From NCBI RefSeq assembly GCF_036507355.1, contig NZ_AP027877.1: 64,000 nucleotides of DNA; one strand, given 5' to 3'. Of the stretch, positions 5,958 to 63,339 are shown piece by piece. The stretch comes from Escherichia coli (lineage in GTDB: Bacteria; Pseudomonadota; Gammaproteobacteria; Enterobacterales; Enterobacteriaceae). Both the position numbers and the translations under genes were made by a program. How positions within the stretch are numbered: the first letter of the stretch is position 1; the number at the start of each line of letters is the position of its first letter. The notes beneath the pieces were generated by a model that saw only the letters and a program-made list of their open reading frames with translations, had not been told where the DNA came from and did not search any database.

Positions 5958-7055
5958 ATGAAAGGACGTTGGGTAAAGTACCTTCTTATGGGCACGGTTG
6001 TGGCAATGCTTGCCGCCTGCTCTTCCAAACCAACCGATCGCGGACAGCAATATAAAGACGGGAAATTTACCCAGCCTTTCTCTCTGGTGAACCAGCCAGA
6101 TGCCGTTGGCGCGCCGATTAACGCCGGTGATTTTGCCGAGCAAATTAACCATATCCGTAATTCGTCACCGCGTCTGTATGGTAACCAGAGTAATGTTTAT
6201 AACGCGGTACAAGAGTGGCTGCGCGCAGGCGGTGATACCCGCAATATGCGTCAGTTCGGCATTGATGCCTGGCAGATGGAAGGTGCCGACAACTATGGTA
6301 ACGTGCAGTTTACCGGTTATTACACACCAGTAATTCAGGCGCGCCATACCCGCCAGGGCGAGTTTCAGTATCCGATTTACCGTATGCCGCCAAAACGTGG
6401 TCGTCTGCCGTCTCGTGCGGAGATCTACGCGGGGGCATTGAGTGATAAATATATTCTCGCTTACAGTAACTCCCTGATGGATAACTTCATTATGGATGTG
6501 CAGGGTAGTGGGTATATCGACTTTGGTGATGGCAGTCCGCTTAACTTTTTCAGCTATGCAGGGAAAAACGGTCATGCCTATCGCAGCATTGGTAAGGTGC
6601 TGATCGACCGTGGCGAAGTGAAAAAAGAAGATATGTCGATGCAGGCGATTCGTCACTGGGGCGAAACACACAGTGAAGCCGAGGTTCGCGAGCTGCTGGA
6701 ACAGAACCCGTCTTTCGTTTTCTTTAAACCGCAATCTTTTGCACCGGTGAAAGGGGCAAGTGCGGTGCCGCTGGTTGGCCGTGCTTCTGTTGCCTCCGAT
6801 CGTTCAATTATTCCGCCAGGTACAACCTTGCTGGCAGAAGTGCCGCTGCTGGATAATAACGGCAAATTTAACGGTCAGTACGAATTGCGTCTGATGGTGG
6901 CGCTGGATGTCGGTGGCGCAATCAAAGGCCAACACTTCGATATCTATCAAGGGATCGGGCCGGAAGCCGGACACCGTGCAGGTTGGTACAACCACTATGG
7001 ACGGGTTTGGGTGCTGAAAACGGCTCCGGGCGCAGGTAACGTCTTTAGCGGCTGA
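5958..7055 (+). CDS. mltA: Membrane-bound lytic murein transglycosylase A (lipoprotein)
   Basis: 365-aa product from ATG 5958; lipoprotein signal with lipobox LAAC; MltA-family sequence. The six-frame ORF (from 5676) runs back into the tRNA repeats and is not used. Confidence 0.9.
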   Translation: MKGRWVKYLLMGTVVAMLAACSSKPTDRGQQYKDGKFTQPFSLVNQPDAVGAPINAGDFAEQINHIRNSSPRLYGNQSNVYNAVQEWLRAGGDTRNMRQFGIDAWQMEGADNYGNVQFTGYYTPVIQARHTRQGEFQYPIYRMPPKRGRLPSRAEIYAGALSDKYILAYSNSLMDNFIMDVQGSGYIDFGDGSPLNFFSYAGKNGHAYRSIGKVLIDRGEVKKEDMSMQAIRHWGETHSEAEVRELLEQNPSFVFFKPQSFAPVKGASAVPLVGRASVASDRSIIPPGTTLLAEVPLLDNNGKFNGQYELRLMVALDVGGAIKGQHFDIYQGIGPEAGHRAGWYNHYGRVWVLKTAPGAGNVFSG

Positions 7056-7090
7056 TGTGATATTCTGTATGCCGTTTTTACGGATATTAC

Positions 7091-7270
7091 AGGGTGAGGG
7101 ATAACCTCACATCCTGATTATTGACTAAGTGCGCGTTGTTCATGCCGGATGCGGCGTGAACGCCTTATCCAGCCTACAAATCATGCAAATCCAAAATATT
7201 GCAGGAGTTATGTAGGCCTGATAAGCGTAGCGCATCAGGCATTTATGCGTTTAGGGTGAGGGATAACCTC
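7091..7270. repeat. BIME-like cluster: two REP palindromes bracketed by an 18-bp direct repeat
   Basis: AGGGTGAGGGATAACCTC at 7091-7108 and 7253-7270; REP-like units GCCGGATGCGGCGTGAACGCCTTATCCAGCCTAC and GTAGGCCTGATAAGCGTAGCGCATCAGGC between them. Confidence 0.6.
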
Positions 7271-7293
7271 GCCCTTTTTAATTCTGAGGTGCT

Positions 7294-8100
7294 ATGTCTG
7301 TGGTAATTAGTGATGTATGGCGTCAGCGTTTTGGTGGCACAGCGCGTCTGTATGGTGAAAAAGCGTTGCAACTGTTTGCTGACGCGCATATTTGTGTGGT
7401 TGGTATCGGTGGTGTCGGTTCCTGGGCGGCGGAAGCGCTGGCGCGCACGGGGATTGGCGCAATCACGCTTATCGATATGGATGATGTGTGCGTCACCAAT
7501 ACCAATCGGCAAATTCATGCCCTGCGCGATAACGTTGGGCTGGCAAAAGCGGAAGTCATGGCGGAACGTATTCGCCAGATTAACCCGGAGTGCCGTGTAA
7601 CGGTGGTGGATGATTTCGTGACGCCGGATAACGTAGCGCAATATATGAGTGCCGGTTATTCGTACGTGATTGATGCCATTGATAGTGTACGGCCCAAAGC
7701 GGCGCTGATTGCTTATTGTCGGCGCAATAAAATTCCGCTGGTCACGACCGGTGGCGCGGGTGGGCAGATTGACCCGACGCAGATTCAGGTTACCGATCTG
7801 GCGAAAACGATTCAGGACCCGCTGGCGGCGAAGTTGCGTGAGCGCCTGAAAAGCGATTTTGGCGTAGTGAAAAACAGTAAAGGTAAGCTCGGCGTGGATT
7901 GCGTGTTCTCTACCGAAGCATTGGTGTACCCGCAGTCAGACGGCACGGTGTGTGCGATGAAAGCCACGGCGGAAGGACCAAAGCGGATGGATTGTGCATC
8001 TGGATTTGGCGCGGCAACGATGGTGACCGCCACCTTTGGTTTTGTTGCGGTTTCTCATGCGCTGAAGAATATGATGGCGAAAGCGGCGCGACAGGGGTAA
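7294..8100 (+). CDS. tcdA: tRNA threonylcarbamoyladenosine dehydratase (E1-like, ThiF/MoeB fold)
   Basis: 268-aa ORF with nucleotide-binding GIGGVGSWAAEALARTG motif; synteny with csdAE. Confidence 0.9.
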   Translation: MSVVISDVWRQRFGGTARLYGEKALQLFADAHICVVGIGGVGSWAAEALARTGIGAITLIDMDDVCVTNTNRQIHALRDNVGLAKAEVMAERIRQINPECRVTVVDDFVTPDNVAQYMSAGYSYVIDAIDSVRPKAALIAYCRRNKIPLVTTGGAGGQIDPTQIQVTDLAKTIQDPLAAKLRERLKSDFGVVKNSKGKLGVDCVFSTEALVYPQSDGTVCAMKATAEGPKRMDCASGFGAATMVTATFGFVAVSHALKNMMAKAARQG

Positions 8101-13825: not shown

Positions 13826-14248
13826 TTACGGTGTTACCCCTTTTTTTAAAAGAATATTCCCGTACTTCGCTCGTTCGCCTGTGATAACGATCGCAAAGGC
13901 TTTTTGCGCCCGTTCATAAAACGCAAAACGATTGATGCGGATGATGTCAGGACAGGGGGCTTGTAGTGAAAGCGCATTACGGTAACGTCGTTCTACTTCA
14001 GGATCGAGAGTGTCACCTTCTACCGCCGCCATCATCACCAGCGGTGGTGCATAACTGTCCAGTTCAAATAACGGGATAATCGCCTGGAGCAAGTCGCTCA
14101 CCAACAGGCCATCAGCGCGGATCACCTGCGGTCCCATAGAATGGGCGGGAAAGTGAGCATCGGAAAAAATAATTTCATCTCCATGTCCCATCTCTGCCAG
14201 CACTTTCAATAGTTCGGGAGAAATTAACGGCGAAATTGTTTTCAGCAT
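13826..14248 (-). CDS. fucU: L-fucose mutarotase FucU (RbsD/FucU family)
   Basis: 140-aa ORF; fuc operon synteny. Confidence 0.9.
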
Positions 14249-17694: not shown

Positions 17695-17710
17695 TGTGAG
17701 GGGCTTCACG
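17695..17710. promoter_or_regulatory. CRP-like site TGTGA-N6-TCACG
   Basis: TGTGAggggctTCACG, 9 of 10 matches to the CRP core consensus, lying between the two palindromes. Confidence 0.4.
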
Positions 17711-32770: not shown

Positions 32771-33316
32771 GTGGACGATTTGACCGCACAAGCCCTGAAA
32801 GATTTTACTGCACGCTACTGCGATGCGTGGCATGAAGAGCATAAAAGCTGGCCGTTAAGTGAGGAACTGTACGGCGTTCCTTCACCGTGCATTATTTCAA
32901 CTACTGAAGATGCCGTATACTGGCAACCCCAGCCGTTTACCGGGGAACAAAATGTAAACGCGGTTGAACGCGCTTTTGATATTGTGATACAACCCACAAT
33001 TCATACCTTTTATACGACTCAGTTTGCCGGGGATATGCACGCGCAGTTTGGCGATATCAAACTGACATTGCTGCAAACCTGGAGTGAAGACGACTTCCGT
33101 CGGGTGCAGGAAAATCTGATTGGTCATCTGGTGACTCAGAAAAGGCTAAAACTGCCACCCACGCTATTTATCGCGACGCTGGAAGAAGAGTTAGAGGTCA
33201 TCTCGGTGTGTAATCTCTCCGGTGAAGTGTGTAAAGAGACGCTGGGAACACGTAAACGGACGCATTTAGCCTCAAATCTTGCGGAATTCCTTAATCAACT
33301 TAAGCCTCTTCTGTAA
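32771..33316 (+). CDS. syd: SecY-interacting protein Syd
   Basis: 181-aa ORF; synteny with queF and csrB. Confidence 0.85.
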
Positions 33317-54419: not shown

Positions 54420-54565
54420 TATAGAATTATTTTAAATATTTGCCTTTTTAATCAATGGGTTAAGTGCTCTTTAACATAATGGATGTGTTGTTTGTGTGAT
54501 ACTGTAAAGTTGGTAGATTGTGACTGGCTTAAAAAATCATTAATTAATAATAGGTTATGTTTAGA
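54420..54565 (+). promoter_or_regulatory. AT-rich CRISPR leader of array 1
   Basis: AT-rich tract ending ...GGTTATGTTTAGA immediately 5' of the first repeat. Confidence 0.6.
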
Positions 54566-54777
54566 GAGTTCCCCGCGCCAGCGGGGATAAACCGGAGAGA
54601 GTCCAGTATCAATCCCGCGATCCGCAGAGTTCCCCGCGCCAGCGGGGATAAACCGCCGTTGCGGATCTTGAGTAGTGCCACGTCACCGAGTTCCCCGCGC
54701 CAGCGGGGATAAACCGGGTACAAAAGAGGCCCCATTCTGGCAGGGCTCGAGTTCCCCGCGCCAGCGGGGATAAACCA
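54566..54777 (+). CRISPR. Type I-E CRISPR array: 4 repeats of 29 bp, 3 spacers of 32 bp
   Basis: Repeats GAGTTCCCCGCGCCAGCGGGGATAAACCG at 54566, 54627, 54688 and 54749 (last ends in A); spacers GAGAGAGTCCAGTATCAATCCCGCGATCCGCA, CCGTTGCGGATCTTGAGTAGTGCCACGTCACC, GGTACAAAAGAGGCCCCATTCTGGCAGGGCTC. Confidence 0.95.
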
Positions 54778-55241
54778 CCATATAACCCGTTATCTCTTTC
54801 TCAAGTTTTTATATTAGCAGTACTTGTAATAAGCAACATATCCACGTAACACCTCATGTTCAAAATAGTTCCCCATGCCAGATAAGTTCACAATTATCGA
54901 TACAAAAAATTAAATTTAATCAAAGTGTTATTTGTATAATTCTTAAGCCGTTAAGAAATTTTAATCTATTATTTTTTTAATATTAATTAATGCCTGTTAA
55001 TTTTTTCTTTAGTATAACAGTGTATTTTTTAAGCTTGTTATTCATTGATTAAGTAATAAATCTGGAAATTTGTCTTTGTTTTGAGGCTAATGAGTGGTTT
55101 TACATAACCGCCTCTATACGCTGTTGATGAATAGTTCTTATGAATAAAGATATCCAGTTCATACTTTAAGTGAAAATTGATAAAGTGCGATTCGTATTGT
55201 CTTTTATTCTAAAGACATCGAGTGTAGTTAATATTCCTTGT

Positions 55242-55368
55242 AAAAACAGGGATAAACCGAACTAGTTAAAGTTTTTATTATGTTCCCTGCATCAGCGGGG
55301 ATAAACCGGACTTGTTATCATTTTTTAAGTTGTCGAACTTATGTTCCCCGCGCCAGCGGGGATAACCA
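55242..55368 (+). CRISPR. Degenerate type I-E CRISPR array remnant: 2 decayed repeats plus a partial repeat, 1 full-length spacer
   Basis: Partial repeat ...CAGGGATAAACCG ending 55259; ATGTTCCCTGCATCAGCGGGGATAAACCG (55280-55308); 32-bp spacer GACTTGTTATCATTTTTTAAGTTGTCGAACTT; ATGTTCCCCGCGCCAGCGGGGATAACCA (55341-55368). Confidence 0.8.
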
Positions 55369-55414
55369 TTCAGGTATGTTCAGGCCGGGCAGTTTCCCGC
55401 CCGGTTTTCCTCAC

Positions 55415-56893
55415 TTACGCATTCGACCAGCTCTGGATCGAATCCGCATTTCCCAATTCCCCATGCATCACTTCATACGATTTTTTCAGAATCACATCAG
55501 TATGTTTGGTTAGGTCTTTGAAAATGCCTTTATTCATCGCGTCGTAGCGTTTGGCATTGCTCTCAATCGGTATAAAGATATCTTTCACGCGAACCATTTT
55601 ATCGACAGCCGTTGCGTAATCCGGGTATAGCCCCAGACCTACCGCGGTATTAATCGCTGCCCCCAGACTTGCACAACCGTTAATGGCGTTACGTCGTGCC
55701 GGAAGGTTGAACACGTCGGCAAAAATCTGCATAAACAGATCGCTGTTCGAACCGCCGCCAGTAATGATCACATGCTTCGCAAAGTGATTCATTTCATTAC
55801 ACATATTGTCGTAATTGTTCTTCAGCGTCAGCGCCACGCTTTCCAGTATCGAACGATATATCCATGCGTAATCCATGCTGGAATCAAAGCCGATCATAAT
55901 CCCGCGTTTGTACGGTTCCCACGGATTGGTCAGCCAGTCCAGCACCGTCATCAGCCCATTACAGCCAGGTGGCACACTAGAGGCTTTCTTGTTGAGTAAA
56001 TCTTCCGGTGAAAGATCCTGCGCCCTGGCATCCTGAATTAACGACTCGCCCAACATGTCGCGCAGCCAGCTCACCGTCCACATGCCTTTGCGAATACCGT
56101 AACCTTCATACAGCAATGTTTGCGGAATAGAAGACATAATCGGCCAGTACGCCACCGGATCTTTCGGCAAGGCTTTGCCGTTCATCATCAATGCGATGTA
56201 AGTGCCAAGAGAAATTACCGCAGTTTCATCATCCAGTAATCCGGCCCCCAGAGCTTCTACCGGTTTATCACTGGTGGTACAAACAACCGGCAGTCCTGCC
56301 GGGAAATGTGTCGCCAGTGCGGCTTGTGGTGTGATATGTCCGAGGACGGTGCCAGGCATTTGCACATCAAACAGCATATGACGAGGGATATTAAACTTCT
56401 CCATTACCGCAGCATCTTCGCTCCATGCCCAGCTCTTATAATCCACCGGCCACTGACCAAAATAGTTGGCGATATTGTCTTTAAACTCGCCGGTTAAGCG
56501 ATGCGTCAGATAACCCGAAAAAGAGGTGACATATGCCACGTCAGGATTCGTAGGTTCGTAAGGGCGTGTAACGCGTGCATCCTGCCAGCTAATCAATGGC
56601 GCAGCTGGCGTGCCATCGGCTTTCAATAACGCACGGCAGCAACGGATGGATCCCAGACCAATACCGACAATATCTTCTTTATTCCCGGCAAACTGACTCA
56701 TCAAATCGTGACCGGCAAAACATAATGATGCCCATAAATCGTCGTCAGGATGTTCTGCAGTATCGGCATCTGGCGTGTGCATCGGCTGCAATAAACCTTT
56801 GCCTTCGCAAACCACATTACCTTCCAGATCGTACATCACCACTTTTGTGCTCTGACTTCCGCCATCAATCCCTATGATATATTTTTTCGACAT
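55415..56893 (-). CDS. ygcE: FGGY-family sugar kinase
   Basis: 492-aa FGGY-family ORF (GIDGGSQSTK). Confidence 0.85.
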   Translation of the reverse strand: MSKKYIIGIDGGSQSTKVVMYDLEGNVVCEGKGLLQPMHTPDADTAEHPDDDLWASLCFAGHDLMSQFAGNKEDIVGIGLGSIRCCRALLKADGTPAAPLISWQDARVTRPYEPTNPDVAYVTSFSGYLTHRLTGEFKDNIANYFGQWPVDYKSWAWSEDAAVMEKFNIPRHMLFDVQMPGTVLGHITPQAALATHFPAGLPVVCTTSDKPVEALGAGLLDDETAVISLGTYIALMMNGKALPKDPVAYWPIMSSIPQTLLYEGYGIRKGMWTVSWLRDMLGESLIQDARAQDLSPEDLLNKKASSVPPGCNGLMTVLDWLTNPWEPYKRGIMIGFDSSMDYAWIYRSILESVALTLKNNYDNMCNEMNHFAKHVIITGGGSNSDLFMQIFADVFNLPARRNAINGCASLGAAINTAVGLGLYPDYATAVDKMVRVKDIFIPIESNAKRYDAMNKGIFKDLTKHTDVILKKSYEVMHGELGNADSIQSWSNA

Positions 56894-56919: not shown

Positions 56920-58197
56920 TTACTTGCTGCTAGCTATTGCGGGGGCGCTATCAGCAGTACGAATTTTTTGGAACAGCAAAAAGGTAAAGACGATCACCAT
57001 GCCGAGTGCCGCCATGCCCATCAGCCACATGTTGCGGTAGGCTTCTGCTGCGGGCAGGGTGTCCTGCCAGTGGCCGATAATCGGGTAAACGAAGACATCC
57101 GGCAGGAATCCAATCACCGAACAAATACCTACCGTGGTGCCCATAATGTAAGACGGTGTTCTCGCTTCGCCAGGGCAGGCCCAGTACAGCCCGCGTGAGG
57201 CGTAACAGGTGAATCCCAGCAGTAAAATCAGGCCAATCCCCATCGCGACCGATTGCGGGTTAGAGTTCGTGACGAGCAGGGCAGTTAACGCCAGCAGGCC
57301 GAGTACGGAAAGGATTTGGATCACGCGGGTAGGGGATTTCACTTTGCTGTAGGTGGTGATTATGCCGCCAAGTGGGCCGCACAGCGCGCGGAATATTTTG
57401 TTGATCACAATCCCCATGTAGCTCGCCGCCACCAGCGACATGCCGTACATTTCGGTCAGATAGTTGGTGGAGTAACTCAGAATGGCGTAGATGGTGAAGA
57501 CACCAAAAATCACCATGCTGCAATACCAGGTGGTGCTGATGCGCAAAACGGCCAGGATGTCGCTAAGCTGGAATGACTGTTTTTCTTCGTTATTGGCACT
57601 ACGCAGGTTATTGTTATCGCTAACAAAAAACCAGCACAGAAGCCCCAACAAGATGTAAACCACACTGTAGATGATAATGACCGTTTTCAGGCTGGCGCTG
57701 TCATCCGGTGCAAAGCGAGAAAAGACCCACATGGTAAACACCGCCAGCGACATTACACCGACGCCGCGCAGCCCTTCCATCCAGCCCATAATTTTCCCTT
57801 GCTCGCTATGATCGCCAAGCAACGATGCGGCTTTAATCGACACCGACCACAGCATTAAAATCGTTGTTATCGCAAAGGCGACCTGAATACAGAGCATTAC
57901 CCACAGCGGTGGATACGTTGCCATTAACAGACCCAGTAATCCGGTAATGATCATCGCGGAAGTAATCATTTTGCGGTGTGAAAATTTATCGGCAATAACG
58001 CCGCTGGGGGCATAAAGAATAATAGCCGCAATACCAAAGGTACTCATTATTAAACCTATCTCGGTATTGCTGAATCCCATAAATTTCGCCATGGGAATTT
58101 GATAAATATAACGTAAATAAGCCAGGTCGAAACTAACGCCGCCGCTAAAACTAATTATCGCGAGGGTTATCCAACGGCGATATGAGTTGTGTTGCAT
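56920..58197 (-). CDS. yqcE: MFS transporter
   Basis: 425-aa 12-TM ORF upstream of ygcE on the same strand. Confidence 0.85.
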   Translation of the reverse strand: MQHNSYRRWITLAIISFSGGVSFDLAYLRYIYQIPMAKFMGFSNTEIGLIMSTFGIAAIILYAPSGVIADKFSHRKMITSAMIITGLLGLLMATYPPLWVMLCIQVAFAITTILMLWSVSIKAASLLGDHSEQGKIMGWMEGLRGVGVMSLAVFTMWVFSRFAPDDSASLKTVIIIYSVVYILLGLLCWFFVSDNNNLRSANNEEKQSFQLSDILAVLRISTTWYCSMVIFGVFTIYAILSYSTNYLTEMYGMSLVAASYMGIVINKIFRALCGPLGGIITTYSKVKSPTRVIQILSVLGLLALTALLVTNSNPQSVAMGIGLILLLGFTCYASRGLYWACPGEARTPSYIMGTTVGICSVIGFLPDVFVYPIIGHWQDTLPAAEAYRNMWLMGMAALGMVIVFTFLLFQKIRTADSAPAIASSK

Positions 58198-58375
58198 ATC
58201 GTATTCCCATTTGTAATAGACAAAAAAAAGAGAAAAGTAAGCCGCCCTTTCAGGTGGATTACTTTTCTCAGGTCTCTAGTAATTGAAATAATAAATAACA
58301 TGGAAAGCAGAGGTGTTGTGTGAGAGTAATCACGCTTCTGCTTTTTAAAACTATTTGATAATGCGAATATCACAC

Positions 58376-58391
58376 TGTGATTACGATCACA
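58376..58391. promoter_or_regulatory. Perfect CRP core site TGTGA-N6-TCACA
   Basis: TGTGAttacgaTCACA in the divergent yqcE / ygcU' intergenic region, about 57 bp upstream of the ygcU' ATG. Confidence 0.5.
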
Positions 58392-58440
58392 TTAGCAGTT
58401 ATGTCCTTATGCTAAAAATTATCTCCAGTTACCAGAGATA

Positions 58441-59571
58441 ATGAGAAAGGTAACTGAGAATATGCAGGCGACGGCGCAATGTGGCGTTCCGCTGGAGGTG
58501 CTGGAAAACGCGTTGCGTGAAAAAGGTTACACCACGGGGCATTCTCCGCAGTCAAAGCCGCTGGCGCAGATGGGCGGCCTGGTAGCAACCCGCAGTATCG
58601 GGCAGTTCTCCACACTCTACGGCGCAATCGAAGATATGGTCGTTGGTCTGGAAGCAGTATTGGCTGATGGCACCGTGACACGTATTAAAAACGTGCCACG
58701 CCGCGCGGCTGGCCCGGACATTCGTCACATCATCATCGGCAACGAAGGTGCATTGTGCTATATCACTGAAGTAACAGTGAAAATCTTTAAATTCACCCCG
58801 GAAAACAACCTCTTCTACGGCTATATCCTGGAAGACATGAAAACCGGCTTCAACATCCTGCGTGAAATCATGGTGGAAGGGTATCGTCCGTCGATCGCTC
58901 GTTTGTATGACGCTGAAGATGGCACCCAACACTTCACGCATTTTGCCGACGGAAAATGCGTGCTGATCTTTATGGCTGAAGGTAACCCTCGCATTGCGAA
59001 GGCGACGGGCGAAGGGATTGCGGAAATCGTTGCCCGCTACCCGCAATGCCAACGCGTGGACAGCAAGCTGATCGAAACCTGGTTTAACAACCTGAACTGG
59101 GGACCGGATAAAGTGGCTGCCGAACGTGTGCAGATCCTCAAAACCGGCAACATGGGCTTTACTACCGAAGTGTCCGGCTGCTGGAGCTGCATCCACGAAA
59201 TCTACGAAAGCGTTATTAACCGTATTCGTACCGAGTTCCCGCACGCCGACGACATCACTATGCTGGGCGGTCACTCCTCTCATAGCTATCAGAACGGCAC
59301 CAACATGTACTTCGTCTACGACTACAACGTTGTCAACTGTAAGCCGGAAGAGGAAATCGACAAGTACCACAATCCGCTCAACAAAATCATTTGCGAAGAA
59401 ACCATTCGCCTCGGTGGTTCGATGGTGCACCACCACGGTATCGGTAAACATCGCGTTCACTGGAGCAAGCTGGAACACGGCAGCGCGTGGGCGTTGCTGG
59501 AAGGGCTGAAAAAGCAATTCGATCCTAACGGCATTATGAATACGGGTACTATCTATCCGATTGAAAAATAA
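58441..59571 (+). CDS. ygcU: FAD-linked oxidoreductase (alkyl-DHAP synthase / GlcD-like), apparently N-terminally truncated
   Basis: 376-aa ORF beginning within the FAD-binding domain (MGGLVATRSIGQFSTLYGAIEDMV); in-frame stop upstream at 58393-58395; family members are normally about 480 aa. Confidence 0.7.
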   Translation: MRKVTENMQATAQCGVPLEVLENALREKGYTTGHSPQSKPLAQMGGLVATRSIGQFSTLYGAIEDMVVGLEAVLADGTVTRIKNVPRRAAGPDIRHIIIGNEGALCYITEVTVKIFKFTPENNLFYGYILEDMKTGFNILREIMVEGYRPSIARLYDAEDGTQHFTHFADGKCVLIFMAEGNPRIAKATGEGIAEIVARYPQCQRVDSKLIETWFNNLNWGPDKVAAERVQILKTGNMGFTTEVSGCWSCIHEIYESVINRIRTEFPHADDITMLGGHSSHSYQNGTNMYFVYDYNVVNCKPEEEIDKYHNPLNKIICEETIRLGGSMVHHHGIGKHRVHWSKLEHGSAWALLEGLKKQFDPNGIMNTGTIYPIEK

Positions 59572-59664
59572 TGTGTCAGGCAGCGTTCCGCGATGATGGG
59601 GCGTTGCCTTTTCGGCTTCTCAGGCGAGAAGCCGTTCTTATTACCGGACAATGAAGGGGTAAAG

Positions 59665-61002
59665 ATGAACACTTCACCGGTGCGAATGGATGATTTACCA
59701 CTTAACCGTTTTCACTGTCGAATTGCTGCGCTCACTTTCGGCGCACACCTGACCGACGGTTATGTTCTCGGCGTCATTGGTTACGCCATTATTCAACTTA
59801 CGCCCGCCATGCAACTGACGCCGTTTATGGCGGGAATGATCGGCGGCTCGGCGCTCCTTGGTTTGTTTCTTGGCAGCCTGGTTCTTGGGTGGATCTCCGA
59901 CCATATTGGTCGGCAAAAAATCTTCACCTTCAGCTTTTTGCTGATTACGCTCGCTTCGTTCCTGCAATTTTTTGCCACCACGCCAGAGCATCTTATTGGA
60001 CTGCGCATTTTGATCGGCATTGGTCTGGGAGGCGATTACTCAGTAGGTCACACCTTGCTGGCTGAATTTTCCCCGCGCCGCCATCGCGGTGTTTTGCTGG
60101 GCGCATTCAGCGTGGTGTGGACCGTAGGCTATGTGCTGGCAAGTATTGCCGGACATCACTTTATTTCCGAAAACCCGGAGGCCTGGCGCTGGCTGCTGGC
60201 ATCGGCAGCTCTGCCCGCGTTGTTGATTACGTTATTACGCTGGGGAACGCCAGAATCGCCACGCTGGCTACTGCGCCAGGGGCGTTTTGCAGAAGCTCAC
60301 GCTATCGTGCATCGCTATTTTGGTCCCCATGTTTTACTGGGCGATGAAGTGGCAACGGCGACCCATAAACACATCAAAACCTTGTTCTCTTCACGCTACT
60401 GGCGGCGCACGGCGTTTAACAGCGTCTTCTTTGTCTGCCTCGTAATCCCATGGTTTGTGATTTATACCTGGCTGCCAACTATCGCCCAGACTATTGGTCT
60501 GGAAGATGCGCTGACTGCCAGCCTGATGCTTAATGCGTTGTTAATTGTGGGCGCGCTGCTGGGATTAGTTCTGACGCACCTGCTGGCACATCGCAAATTT
60601 TTGCTGGGAAGTTTTTTGCTGCTGGCGGCAACGCTGGTAGTAATGGCCTGTTTGCCTTCCGGCAGTTCATTAACGCTGCTGCTTTTTGTTCTCTTCAGCA
60701 CCACCATTTCGGCAGTCAGTAATCTGGTGGGCATTTTGCCTGCGGAAAGTTTTCCTACTGACATTCGCTCGCTGGGCGTCGGTTTTGCCATCGCCATGAG
60801 TCGGTTGGGGGCGGCGGTAAGTACTGGCCTGCTGCCGTGGGTGCTGGCGCAGTGGGGAATGCAAGTCACCTTATTGCTCCTGGCGGCAGTGTTGTTGGTT
60901 GGTTTTGTTGTAACCTGGCTATGGGCACCAGAAACCAAAGCACTCCCGCTGGTGGCGGCGGGAAATGTAGGAGGTGCGAATGAACATTCTGTTAGCGTTT
61001 AA
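59665..61002 (+). CDS. ygcS: MFS sugar-porter-family transporter
   Basis: 445-aa product from ATG 59665 (AGGGG RBS); sugar-porter motifs GRQK and PETK. Confidence 0.85.
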   Translation: MNTSPVRMDDLPLNRFHCRIAALTFGAHLTDGYVLGVIGYAIIQLTPAMQLTPFMAGMIGGSALLGLFLGSLVLGWISDHIGRQKIFTFSFLLITLASFLQFFATTPEHLIGLRILIGIGLGGDYSVGHTLLAEFSPRRHRGVLLGAFSVVWTVGYVLASIAGHHFISENPEAWRWLLASAALPALLITLLRWGTPESPRWLLRQGRFAEAHAIVHRYFGPHVLLGDEVATATHKHIKTLFSSRYWRRTAFNSVFFVCLVIPWFVIYTWLPTIAQTIGLEDALTASLMLNALLIVGALLGLVLTHLLAHRKFLLGSFLLLAATLVVMACLPSGSSLTLLLFVLFSTTISAVSNLVGILPAESFPTDIRSLGVGFAIAMSRLGAAVSTGLLPWVLAQWGMQVTLLLLAAVLLVGFVVTWLWAPETKALPLVAAGNVGGANEHSVSV

Positions 61003-62763: not shown

Positions 62764-63339
62764 TCAAAGCAATTTTTTCGCTAATGTCCAGACTCCGGTA
62801 TTCGTGGTGGAAAGCGCCACGACACCCGCGTTAATCGCATTACGCGCATCTTCTTCATCGCATACCAGCCCGCCAGCAATCAGCGGTTGGCGGATTTTTT
62901 CCGTCACCCAGCCCAGCACTTTGGGCATGCAGCCTGGCAGGATCTCAATACAATCCGGATTCGATTGCGCAACTTGCTTATCAATGTTGTGAAACGAAAT
63001 CGAATCAACAATAAACAGGCGATGAATACAGAAAAAACCTTCCGCTCTTGCCGCTTTTAGCATCGATGCTTTGGTGCTGATAATTCCATCCGCCTCGGTC
63101 ACCAGTTTCAAAAACTGAATCACGACTTCTTTATTTGACGCGCCTTCCAGCAAATCGACATGAATAAAAGCATATTTCCCGGCGTTCTTAATCTTTTTAA
63201 CGATTTGACTAATGGTGCAGATATTGCCGTACAACACGGAAATAAATTGGCATTCAGAATCGATTGCCAGTTGCAGGCTGGCATTATCTTTAACGGCAGC
63301 AATCACCGGATTCTGGCGGAGCAGGTGTAAGAGGGGCAT
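62764..63339 (-). CDS. ygcP: GlpP-family (glycerol-3-phosphate-responsive antiterminator-like) protein
   Basis: 191-aa ORF. Confidence 0.75.
   Translation of the reverse strand: MPLLHLLRQNPVIAAVKDNASLQLAIDSECQFISVLYGNICTISQIVKKIKNAGKYAFIHVDLLEGASNKEVVIQFLKLVTEADGIISTKASMLKAARAEGFFCIHRLFIVDSISFHNIDKQVAQSNPDCIEILPGCMPKVLGWVTEKIRQPLIAGGLVCDEEDARNAINAGVVALSTTNTGVWTLAKKLL

Follow-up and report, generated by a model that had tools for sequence, protein, structure and literature searches.

Genomic setting of the locus

The window, that is the whole 64,000-nucleotide stretch of Escherichia coli contig NZ_AP027877.1 (assembly GCF_036507355.1) that was analysed, contains a cluster of genes grouped around one short intergenic spacer. 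The genes of the locus are as follows.

55415-56893, minus strand: ygcE, FGGY kinase (from open reading frames and Pfam)
56920-58197, minus strand: yqcE, MFS transporter (from open reading frames and Pfam)
58462-59571, plus strand: ygcU', truncated FAD-linked oxidase, 369 aa from the ATG at 58462 or 376 aa from the ATG at 58441
59593-61002, plus strand: ygcS, MFS sugar transporter
up to 62616, plus strand: ygcR and ygcQ, ETF beta and alpha
62764-63339, minus strand: ygcP, GlpP-family (PF04309) antiterminator, candidate reader of both leaders described below

The annotated E. coli genomes F9792 and MG1655 have yqcE, a 318-bp spacer, ygcW (encoding an SDR) and then a full-length ygcU. The initial annotation had placed the region between yqcE and ygcU' as divergent genes; the ancestral region is the yqcE/ygcW spacer, and ygcU' adjoins it only through a 1254-bp deletion. 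The GC content of the spacer is about 35-37%.

Two features of the surroundings can be mentioned in passing. Gene ygcS is an intact 469-aa ORF in the window and in strain F9792; the K-12 MG1655 record lists it as a pseudogene that has an internal stop. Between queE and ygcE there is a short CRISPR array resembling type I-E (window 54565-54777 and 55230-55369), with four 30-nt repeats (AGAGTTCCCCGCGCCAGCGGGGATAAACCG) at 61-bp spacing and three degenerate repeats closer to ygcE. The array was seen by a direct-repeat finder; TRF reported no array between queE and ygcE.

CRP site A and published evidence for binding

The spacer holds two CRP sites, neither assigned to a strand.

58376-58391: CRP site A, TGTGATTACGATCACA, with a 22-bp footprint at 58373-58394 and its centre at 58383.5
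58319-58334: CRP site B, TGTGAGAGTAATCACG, one mismatch, with its centre at 58326.5, pairing with the yqcE promoter

A perfect CRP core had been claimed at 58376-58391, and this is borne out. All 10 core positions (10/10) fit the consensus TGTGA-N6-TCACA, both half-sites being exact. In a pattern search of the 64 kb window site A is the sole match to exact TGTGAN6TCACA on either strand, where chance would give a mean of 0.05 matches and at least one match in 5 of 100 shuffles. The site reads ...cacacTGTGATTACGATCACAttagc... in its context, and its 22-mer, cacTGTGAttacgaTCACAtta, is identical to the K-12 sequence in the Footprint-seq table cited below. The distances reported earlier are likewise correct: counted from the centre of site A, the ATG at 58441 is 57.5 bp away and the ATG of yqcE, at 58197, is 186.5 bp away. 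When up to one mismatch is allowed the window contains five CRP-like sites vs 1.63 expected, two of the five being sites A and B, 57 bp apart in one intergenic region. Further sites with one mismatch occur at 13880-13895, 17695-17710 and 32983-32998 (TGTGATAACGATCGCA, TGTGAGGGGCTTCACG and TGTGATACAACCCACA, respectively).

Binding of CRP to the site A sequence is established and already known, since ChIP-seq and Footprint-seq results have been published for the identical sequence. The yqcE/ygcW spacer was within the top 20 CRP predictions of PhyloScan in 2007 (PMC1794230). In CRP ChIP-seq of ETEC strain H10407 grown in M9-fructose, a sequence identical to the site A 16-mer is among 111 high-confidence peaks, and the peak was assigned to ygcW/yqcE (PMC4287617). 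In vitro Footprint-seq of K-12, described in a 2026 preprint, gives a site at 2900412, acTGTGAttacgaTCACAtta, for which the Kd is estimated at about 1.7 nM; it is one of 37 strong sites that have no RegulonDB-described site within 500 bp (PMC12871828). From transcriptomes, yqcE-ygcE was counted as Crp-activated in a 2021 study (PMC8085971). Thus, the earlier interpretation, cAMP-CRP control of a catabolic cluster, is correct in outline: the CRP site is real, with binding published in vivo and in vitro on identical sequence, and the flanking genes form a catabolic-type cluster, the control itself being a transcriptome-based inference that covers yqcE-ygcE only.

The same spacer was bound by RNA polymerase and H-NS in genomic SELEX (PMC3946193), and with H-NS bound there the locus may be largely silent in the laboratory. 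The promoters guessed in the genomic-SELEX paper are TTGACA-16-TGTGAT for ygcW and TTCTCA-18-GATAAT for yqcE (PMC3946193).

Two predicted divergent promoters, each with its own CRP site

Conservation of the spacer was followed in 59 loci encoding YqcE relatives, sampled within the Enterobacterales at one genome per species. The loci span Escherichia to Serratia, Rahnella and Pantoea, and nearly all have ygcW as divergent neighbour and both CRP sites. Within an alignment of 21 spacers (alignment A1) only a few blocks are invariant: the half-sites of CRP, a TGnTA element and a leader element, each present on both sides. The two elements of TGnTA type are located as follows.

58410-58420, plus strand: extended -10-like element of the inferred ygcW promoter, TGcTAAAAATT
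58290-58300, minus strand: extended -10-like element of the inferred yqcE promoter, TGtTATTTATT as read on the minus strand

Positions T 58410, G 58411, T 58413 and A 58414 are invariant in A1 on the ygcW side, as are C58299/A58300 and T58296/A58297 on the yqcE side.

The half-sites of site A are conserved, with a free spacer between them, in 57 of the 59 loci; they are kept while the central 6 bases drift (TGTGATCGTAATCACA, TGTGATGAAACTCACA, TGTGAAGCTCATCACA and others). The CRP-like sites found on the ygcW side in these 57/59 loci have 0, 1 or 2 core mismatches in 27, 21 and 9 cases, and the CRP centre lies 26.5-28.5 bp upstream of the TG (26.5 bp in the window). The yqcE side has a CRP site in 55/59 loci (0, 1 or 2 core mismatches in 13, 42 and 0 cases), and there the distance from CRP centre to TG is 26.5 or 27.5 bp. 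A homologous cluster in Vibrio hannami carries a perfect site, TGTGAGCATTTTCACA, 27.5 bp from TGaTATAAC. The distance between sites A and B is 36-37, 46, 57-58, 69, 93-105, 133, 163-173 or 246 bp across genera, with 36-37 bp in Rahnella-type and 93-246 bp in Serratia-type loci. As the spacing from A to B varies and the spacing to TGnTA is fixed, each CRP site moves together with the promoter that it serves.

Taking TGnTA for an extended -10 (T at -15, G at -14, TA at -12/-11) would place the transcription starts at about 58425 on the plus strand and about 58285 on the minus strand, positions that may be off by 1-2 nt. The fixed 26.5-28.5 bp to TGnTA would put CRP at -41.5 to -43.5 from the predicted start. 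From its conserved distance to the invariant TGnTA, site A is predicted to be a class II activator site, at about -41.5 and overlapping the -35, of the rightward ygcW-operon promoter. Gene yqcE would be served by its own site B in mirror geometry, likewise at about -41.5; with the yqcE promoter a mirror image that has its own CRP site, the spacer would hold two back-to-back CRP-dependent promoters. The -10 hexamers of both are unorthodox, TAAAAA and TATTTA being without the usual T at -7, and a simple sigma-70 scan flagged neither TGnTA element. The picks of that scan, TTCTCA-18-GATAAT (minus strand) and TTCTCA-16-AATAAT (plus strand), were set aside, neither coinciding with the conserved TGnTA. 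The analysis thereby assigns a known CRP site to a specific promoter with a specific geometry, and gives yqcE a separate site.

The initial annotation had measured site A against yqcE as well (about 185 bp). A role at yqcE is unlikely, because yqcE has site B and because the A-to-B distance ranges from 36 to 246 bp. It could still be imagined that site A serves both promoters, activating ygcW and co-activating yqcE from upstream, in class III fashion, together with site B. Tandem CRP sites cooperate at other promoters, sites A and B are 57 bp apart in Escherichia, and the ETEC H10407 ChIP-seq peak was assigned to both ygcW and yqcE. Site A would, however, stand at about -98.5 from the inferred yqcE start, out of helical phase between the usual positions of about -92.5 and about -103.5, and it is each site's distance to its own TGnTA that is fixed across genera, not the distance from A to B. 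Joint service of both promoters by site A is accordingly regarded as unlikely.

Rather less probable still is an idle operator, that is CRP binding with little or no transcriptional effect in a cryptic cluster silenced by H-NS. The binding of the spacer by H-NS in genomic SELEX and its GC content of about 35-37% would suit such a state, as would the distance of over 500 bp that Footprint-seq gives between site A and the nearest RegulonDB-described site, and literature searches found no direct expression data for ygcW. Yet CRP occupies site A in vivo despite H-NS, and both the half-sites and their exact distance from the -10 have been kept across genera and in Vibrio, which is hard to explain without selection on activation. 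That CRP instead represses, by occluding a constitutive promoter composed of TTGACA and TGTGAT (the left half-site), is very improbable: the TTGACA-16-TGTGAT given for K-12 ygcW in the genomic-SELEX paper (PMC3946193) is a motif picked within a SELEX fragment and not a mapped start, its -35 is TTGATA in the window and falls on columns of A1 that are unconserved in other genera, and a site used for repression would hardly hold to a class II distance from a TGnTA located downstream.

Paired leader RNAs with overlapping hairpins

The CRP site itself adds nothing new; the novel lead is a pair of adjacent conserved leaders, or attenuators, which follow the two putative CRP-activated promoters.

58427-58455, plus strand: ygcW-leader antiterminator (RAT-like) hairpin, AGTTACC-agagataatgagaaa-GGTAACT
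58220-58286, minus strand: yqcE leader, with a RAT-like hairpin at 58283-58258 (ATTACTagagacctgagaaaAGTAAT) overlapping an intrinsic terminator

As RNA, the element on the ygcW side reads AGUUACC-agagauaaugagaaa-GGUAACU (58427-58455) and that on the yqcE side AUUACU-agagaccugagaaa-AGUAAU (58283-58258, minus strand). The near-invariant leader element opens both inferred transcripts, at +3 or +4, and the loop of both leaders is of the form AGAGA..GAGAAA. The pattern TTACYAGAG-N3-6-GAGAAARG occurs exactly twice in the window vs 0 expected. The K-12 leaders, about 70 nt each, are at 6071-6137 (minus strand) and 6276-6345 (plus strand) of the K-12 locus (L002).

Each leader folds into a terminator-like hairpin. 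The K-12 ygcW leader gives a hairpin of 19 perfectly paired bp with U9 after it (-37.9 kcal/mol, z -5.9), and the yqcE leader of the window gives an analogous hairpin followed by U8 (-23.3 kcal/mol, z -3.5), with its stem at 58269-58230 and the U8 at 58229-58222. In each leader (on the ygcW side, in the wild type) the 3' arm of the small hairpin lies within the 5' arm of the terminator. Small hairpin and terminator share a strand, and the two structures are therefore mutually exclusive.

Covariation was counted in an alignment of 55 distinct leaders (alignment A2), on which a covariance model was also based. The terminator helix is 90.4% paired, with 8 pairs that show changes on both sides. 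The 7-bp helix of the small antiterminator hairpin is paired in 94% of cells, with 3 compensatory pairs, and slid controls for this hairpin are paired in 16-52% of cells. Column 25 varies in step with columns 9 and 59, a three-way covariation as expected for a shared strand. These counts overstate the number of independent events, because part of the signal reflects differences between the two paralogous types of leader and between related lineages.

In 30 of 30 spacers tested, the covariance model yields two strong copies per spacer, no more and no fewer (44-85 bits). Loci of Pantoea/Erwinia type carry the leader according to the covariance model and a relaxed regular expression; the strict expression had missed them. 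In the window the model finds one full copy, 58220-58286, at 75.7 bits, because the deletion begins directly after GGUAACU. A permissive-threshold Rfam scan of the K-12 spacer returned no family at its gathering score, the best match being 25.9 bits against a cut-off of 100 (SurA sRNA). Literature searches on combinations of ygcP, ygcW, yqcE and ygc genes turned up no paper about ygcP and nothing on leaders or antitermination.

YgcP and homologous clusters in distant genomes

A candidate reader of these leaders is encoded in the same cluster. YgcP gives a full-length match to PF04309 (1.4e-62, Pfam), and its nearest solved relative is a GlpP-like protein of Listeria (PDB 3kts, 8.5e-28). PF04309 takes its name from the glycerol-3-phosphate responsive antiterminator.

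Homologues of YgcP with 54-62% identity occur in Vibrio hannami, Clostridium sediminicola, Thalassobacillus and Fodinisporobacter (L062-L065). In all four cases SDR, FGGY kinase and FAD-linked oxidase genes are the neighbours, a core that is kept across phyla (the last three genomes being Firmicutes), and ETF subunit genes are present as well in the clusters of Vibrio hannami and Clostridium sediminicola. The covariance model places a leader upstream of the cluster genes in 4/4 of these distant genomes, at 28-58 bits; the Clostridium leader, for example, reads AGUUACUAGAGCAGAGAGAAAAGUAACUUCC....

Transporter genes of other types are found in and beside these clusters. A BCCT transporter lies inside the Clostridium and Thalassobacillus clusters and a BCCT gene adjoins ygcP in Vibrio hannami, and the Fodinisporobacter cluster includes an OpuA-type ABC transporter. 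Such BCCT and OpuA-type neighbours may hint at the substrate of the cluster.

In the region upstream of ygcN-ygcO-ygcP in K-12 the covariance model finds no leader match, so that the putative RNA switch does not govern the gene of its own antiterminator. The ygcN-ygcO-ygcP genes lie downstream of queD, in the same orientation and at a distance of only 77 bp (L070, K-12 991072-991150 region).

From the architecture of the leaders, their co-occurrence with ygcP and the analogy with known antiterminators, we infer as the most economical reading that YgcP with a ligand stabilises the small hairpin and so allows read-through.

A deletion that removes one terminator

In the lineage represented by the window, the ygcW side of the spacer is interrupted.

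58455/58456, no strand assigned: deletion junction, with 1254 bp missing (6307-7560 of K-12 locus L002) and 1 nt of microhomology (T)

The deletion covers the final 60 bp of the spacer, the whole of ygcW and the first 339 bp (codons 1-113) of ygcU. With it were lost the loop, 3' arm and U-tract of the ygcW-leader terminator, together with the ygcW ribosome-binding site; site A, the TGnTA element and the small ygcW-leader hairpin were retained. Of 5426 complete E. coli genomes, 5098 match a 501-bp query across the region, but only in its first 306 bases, and none has both halves of the query in one place. At least two public assemblies, independent of each other (L066, L067), share this junction.

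The deletion allele is real and no assembly artefact, because the 369-aa product from the ATG at 58462 is found on 8 public contigs, one of which (GCA_905398585.1) matches the window at 100% identity over 7.1 kb, and because an independent run assembled in Logan also has the junction 60-mer.

In YgcU' the FAD_binding_4 domain (Pfam) is missing its first 59 profile positions, and the protein is probably inactive. The start codon that had been given for the truncated ygcU, the ATG at 58441, lies inside the conserved leader-RNA hairpin, in its loop (AUGAGAAA), and gene callers start the gene at 58462 (369 aa). The triplet matching it on the yqcE side is CUG, AUG or AAG; the ATG at 58441 is therefore no conserved start, and it is in frame with ygcU only because the length of the deletion is a multiple of three. 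An exact look-up of the 376-aa ORF from this ATG found no record; the 369-aa form from 58462 is recorded. In the wild type, AUG 58441-58443 stands in frame with ygcW, 25 codons upstream and with no stop between. As the yqcE side does not conserve this triplet, its being in frame with ygcW, and then with ygcU', is probably a coincidence.

With the loop, 3' arm and U-tract of its leader terminator gone, the ygcW promoter should now give transcripts that run unchecked into ygcU', ygcS, ygcR and ygcQ.

A two-input model for the ygc locus

Taken together, it appears likely that the locus combines a high-affinity CRP operator activating the ygcW promoter, a mirror-image yqcE promoter, and leader terminators that are read by YgcP. 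According to this model, cAMP-CRP at site A would activate the rightward ygcW-operon promoter in class II fashion, with a start at about 58425, and CRP at site B would activate the leftward yqcE-ygcE promoter. Each transcript would begin with a short hairpin, and transcription would stop within the leader unless the hairpin were stabilised, most likely by YgcP bound to a phosphorylated inducer. Expression would then need both carbon limitation, sensed through CRP, and the substrate, sensed through YgcP. In the lineage of the window, ygcU'-ygcS-ygcR-ygcQ would be read directly from the CRP-dependent ygcW promoter without the leader checkpoint.

CRP is probably only half of the control of the locus, the first of two checkpoints, because both leaders carry terminator/antiterminator switches. 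The more specific proposal, that the CRP site is one input of a two-key switch in which the elements of about 70 nt after both promoters, AGUUACY-AGAGAnnAUGAGAAA-RGUAACU, are the targets of YgcP, is favoured with somewhat less assurance.

Were this proposal true, YgcP would give E. coli, in addition to BglG, a second antitermination system that depends on a protein, and one absent from Rfam. YgcP, its RNA target and a pathway of SDR, FGGY kinase, FAD oxidase and ETF would have been inherited together in both Firmicutes and gamma-proteobacteria, and the deletion in this lineage would have cut one terminator and left ygcS-ygcR-ygcQ under CRP alone. The hairpin/terminator pair of the leaders offers the orphan regulator YgcP a concrete and testable RNA target, and the leaders offer a handle for finding the inducer of the uncharacterised ygc pathway. 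The natural deletion allele could serve as a ready-made terminator-less control strain.

Comparison with known systems

At the promoter level, the inferred arrangement resembles class II CRP promoters of the galP1 and melAB type, where CRP is at about -41.5: a consensus CRP site lies over the -35 position, an extended -10-type TGn stands instead of a good -35, and the operon is catabolic. It differs from these in that the start is an inferred one, the hexamers are without the T at -7, and two promoters are placed back to back with their own sites.

The logic of the locus is like that of the E. coli bgl operon, also a cryptic catabolic locus with a CRP site at its promoter and reported H-NS binding, and with a leader terminator overlapped by a short hairpin that is the target of a protein (a putative target in the ygc case). 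Unlike in bgl, the putative antiterminator belongs to the GlpP family (PF04309) and is not a PRD protein of the BglG/SacY kind. The ygc RNA motif, AGUUACC-AGAGAnnAUGAGAAA-GGUAACU, is unrelated to the RAT of BglG.

In layout the ygc leaders resemble the Bacillus subtilis glpD, glpFK and glpTQ leaders, which respond to GlpP and glycerol-3-phosphate and in which, as here, the promoter is followed directly by a small hairpin. The 5' UTR of B. subtilis glpD placed behind foreign promoters is sufficient for control that depends on GlpP and glycerol (PMC9604022). The glpD hairpin has a GAGA-rich loop (GGUCcugagaugaggagaGACC) and its 3' side opens the terminator stem, the same layout as in the ygc leaders. 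The stem sequences and lengths of the ygc leaders differ from those of the glp leaders, and in place of glp genes the ygc locus has genes for an SDR, FGGY kinase, FAD oxidase, ETF subunits and MFS transporters. YgcP groups with homologues of 55-62% identity that are always in ygc-like clusters, and it is set beside B. subtilis GlpP by family only. In both systems, a GlpP-family gene lies nearby and catabolite control is added to the leader, through CcpA in B. subtilis and through CRP at the ygc locus.
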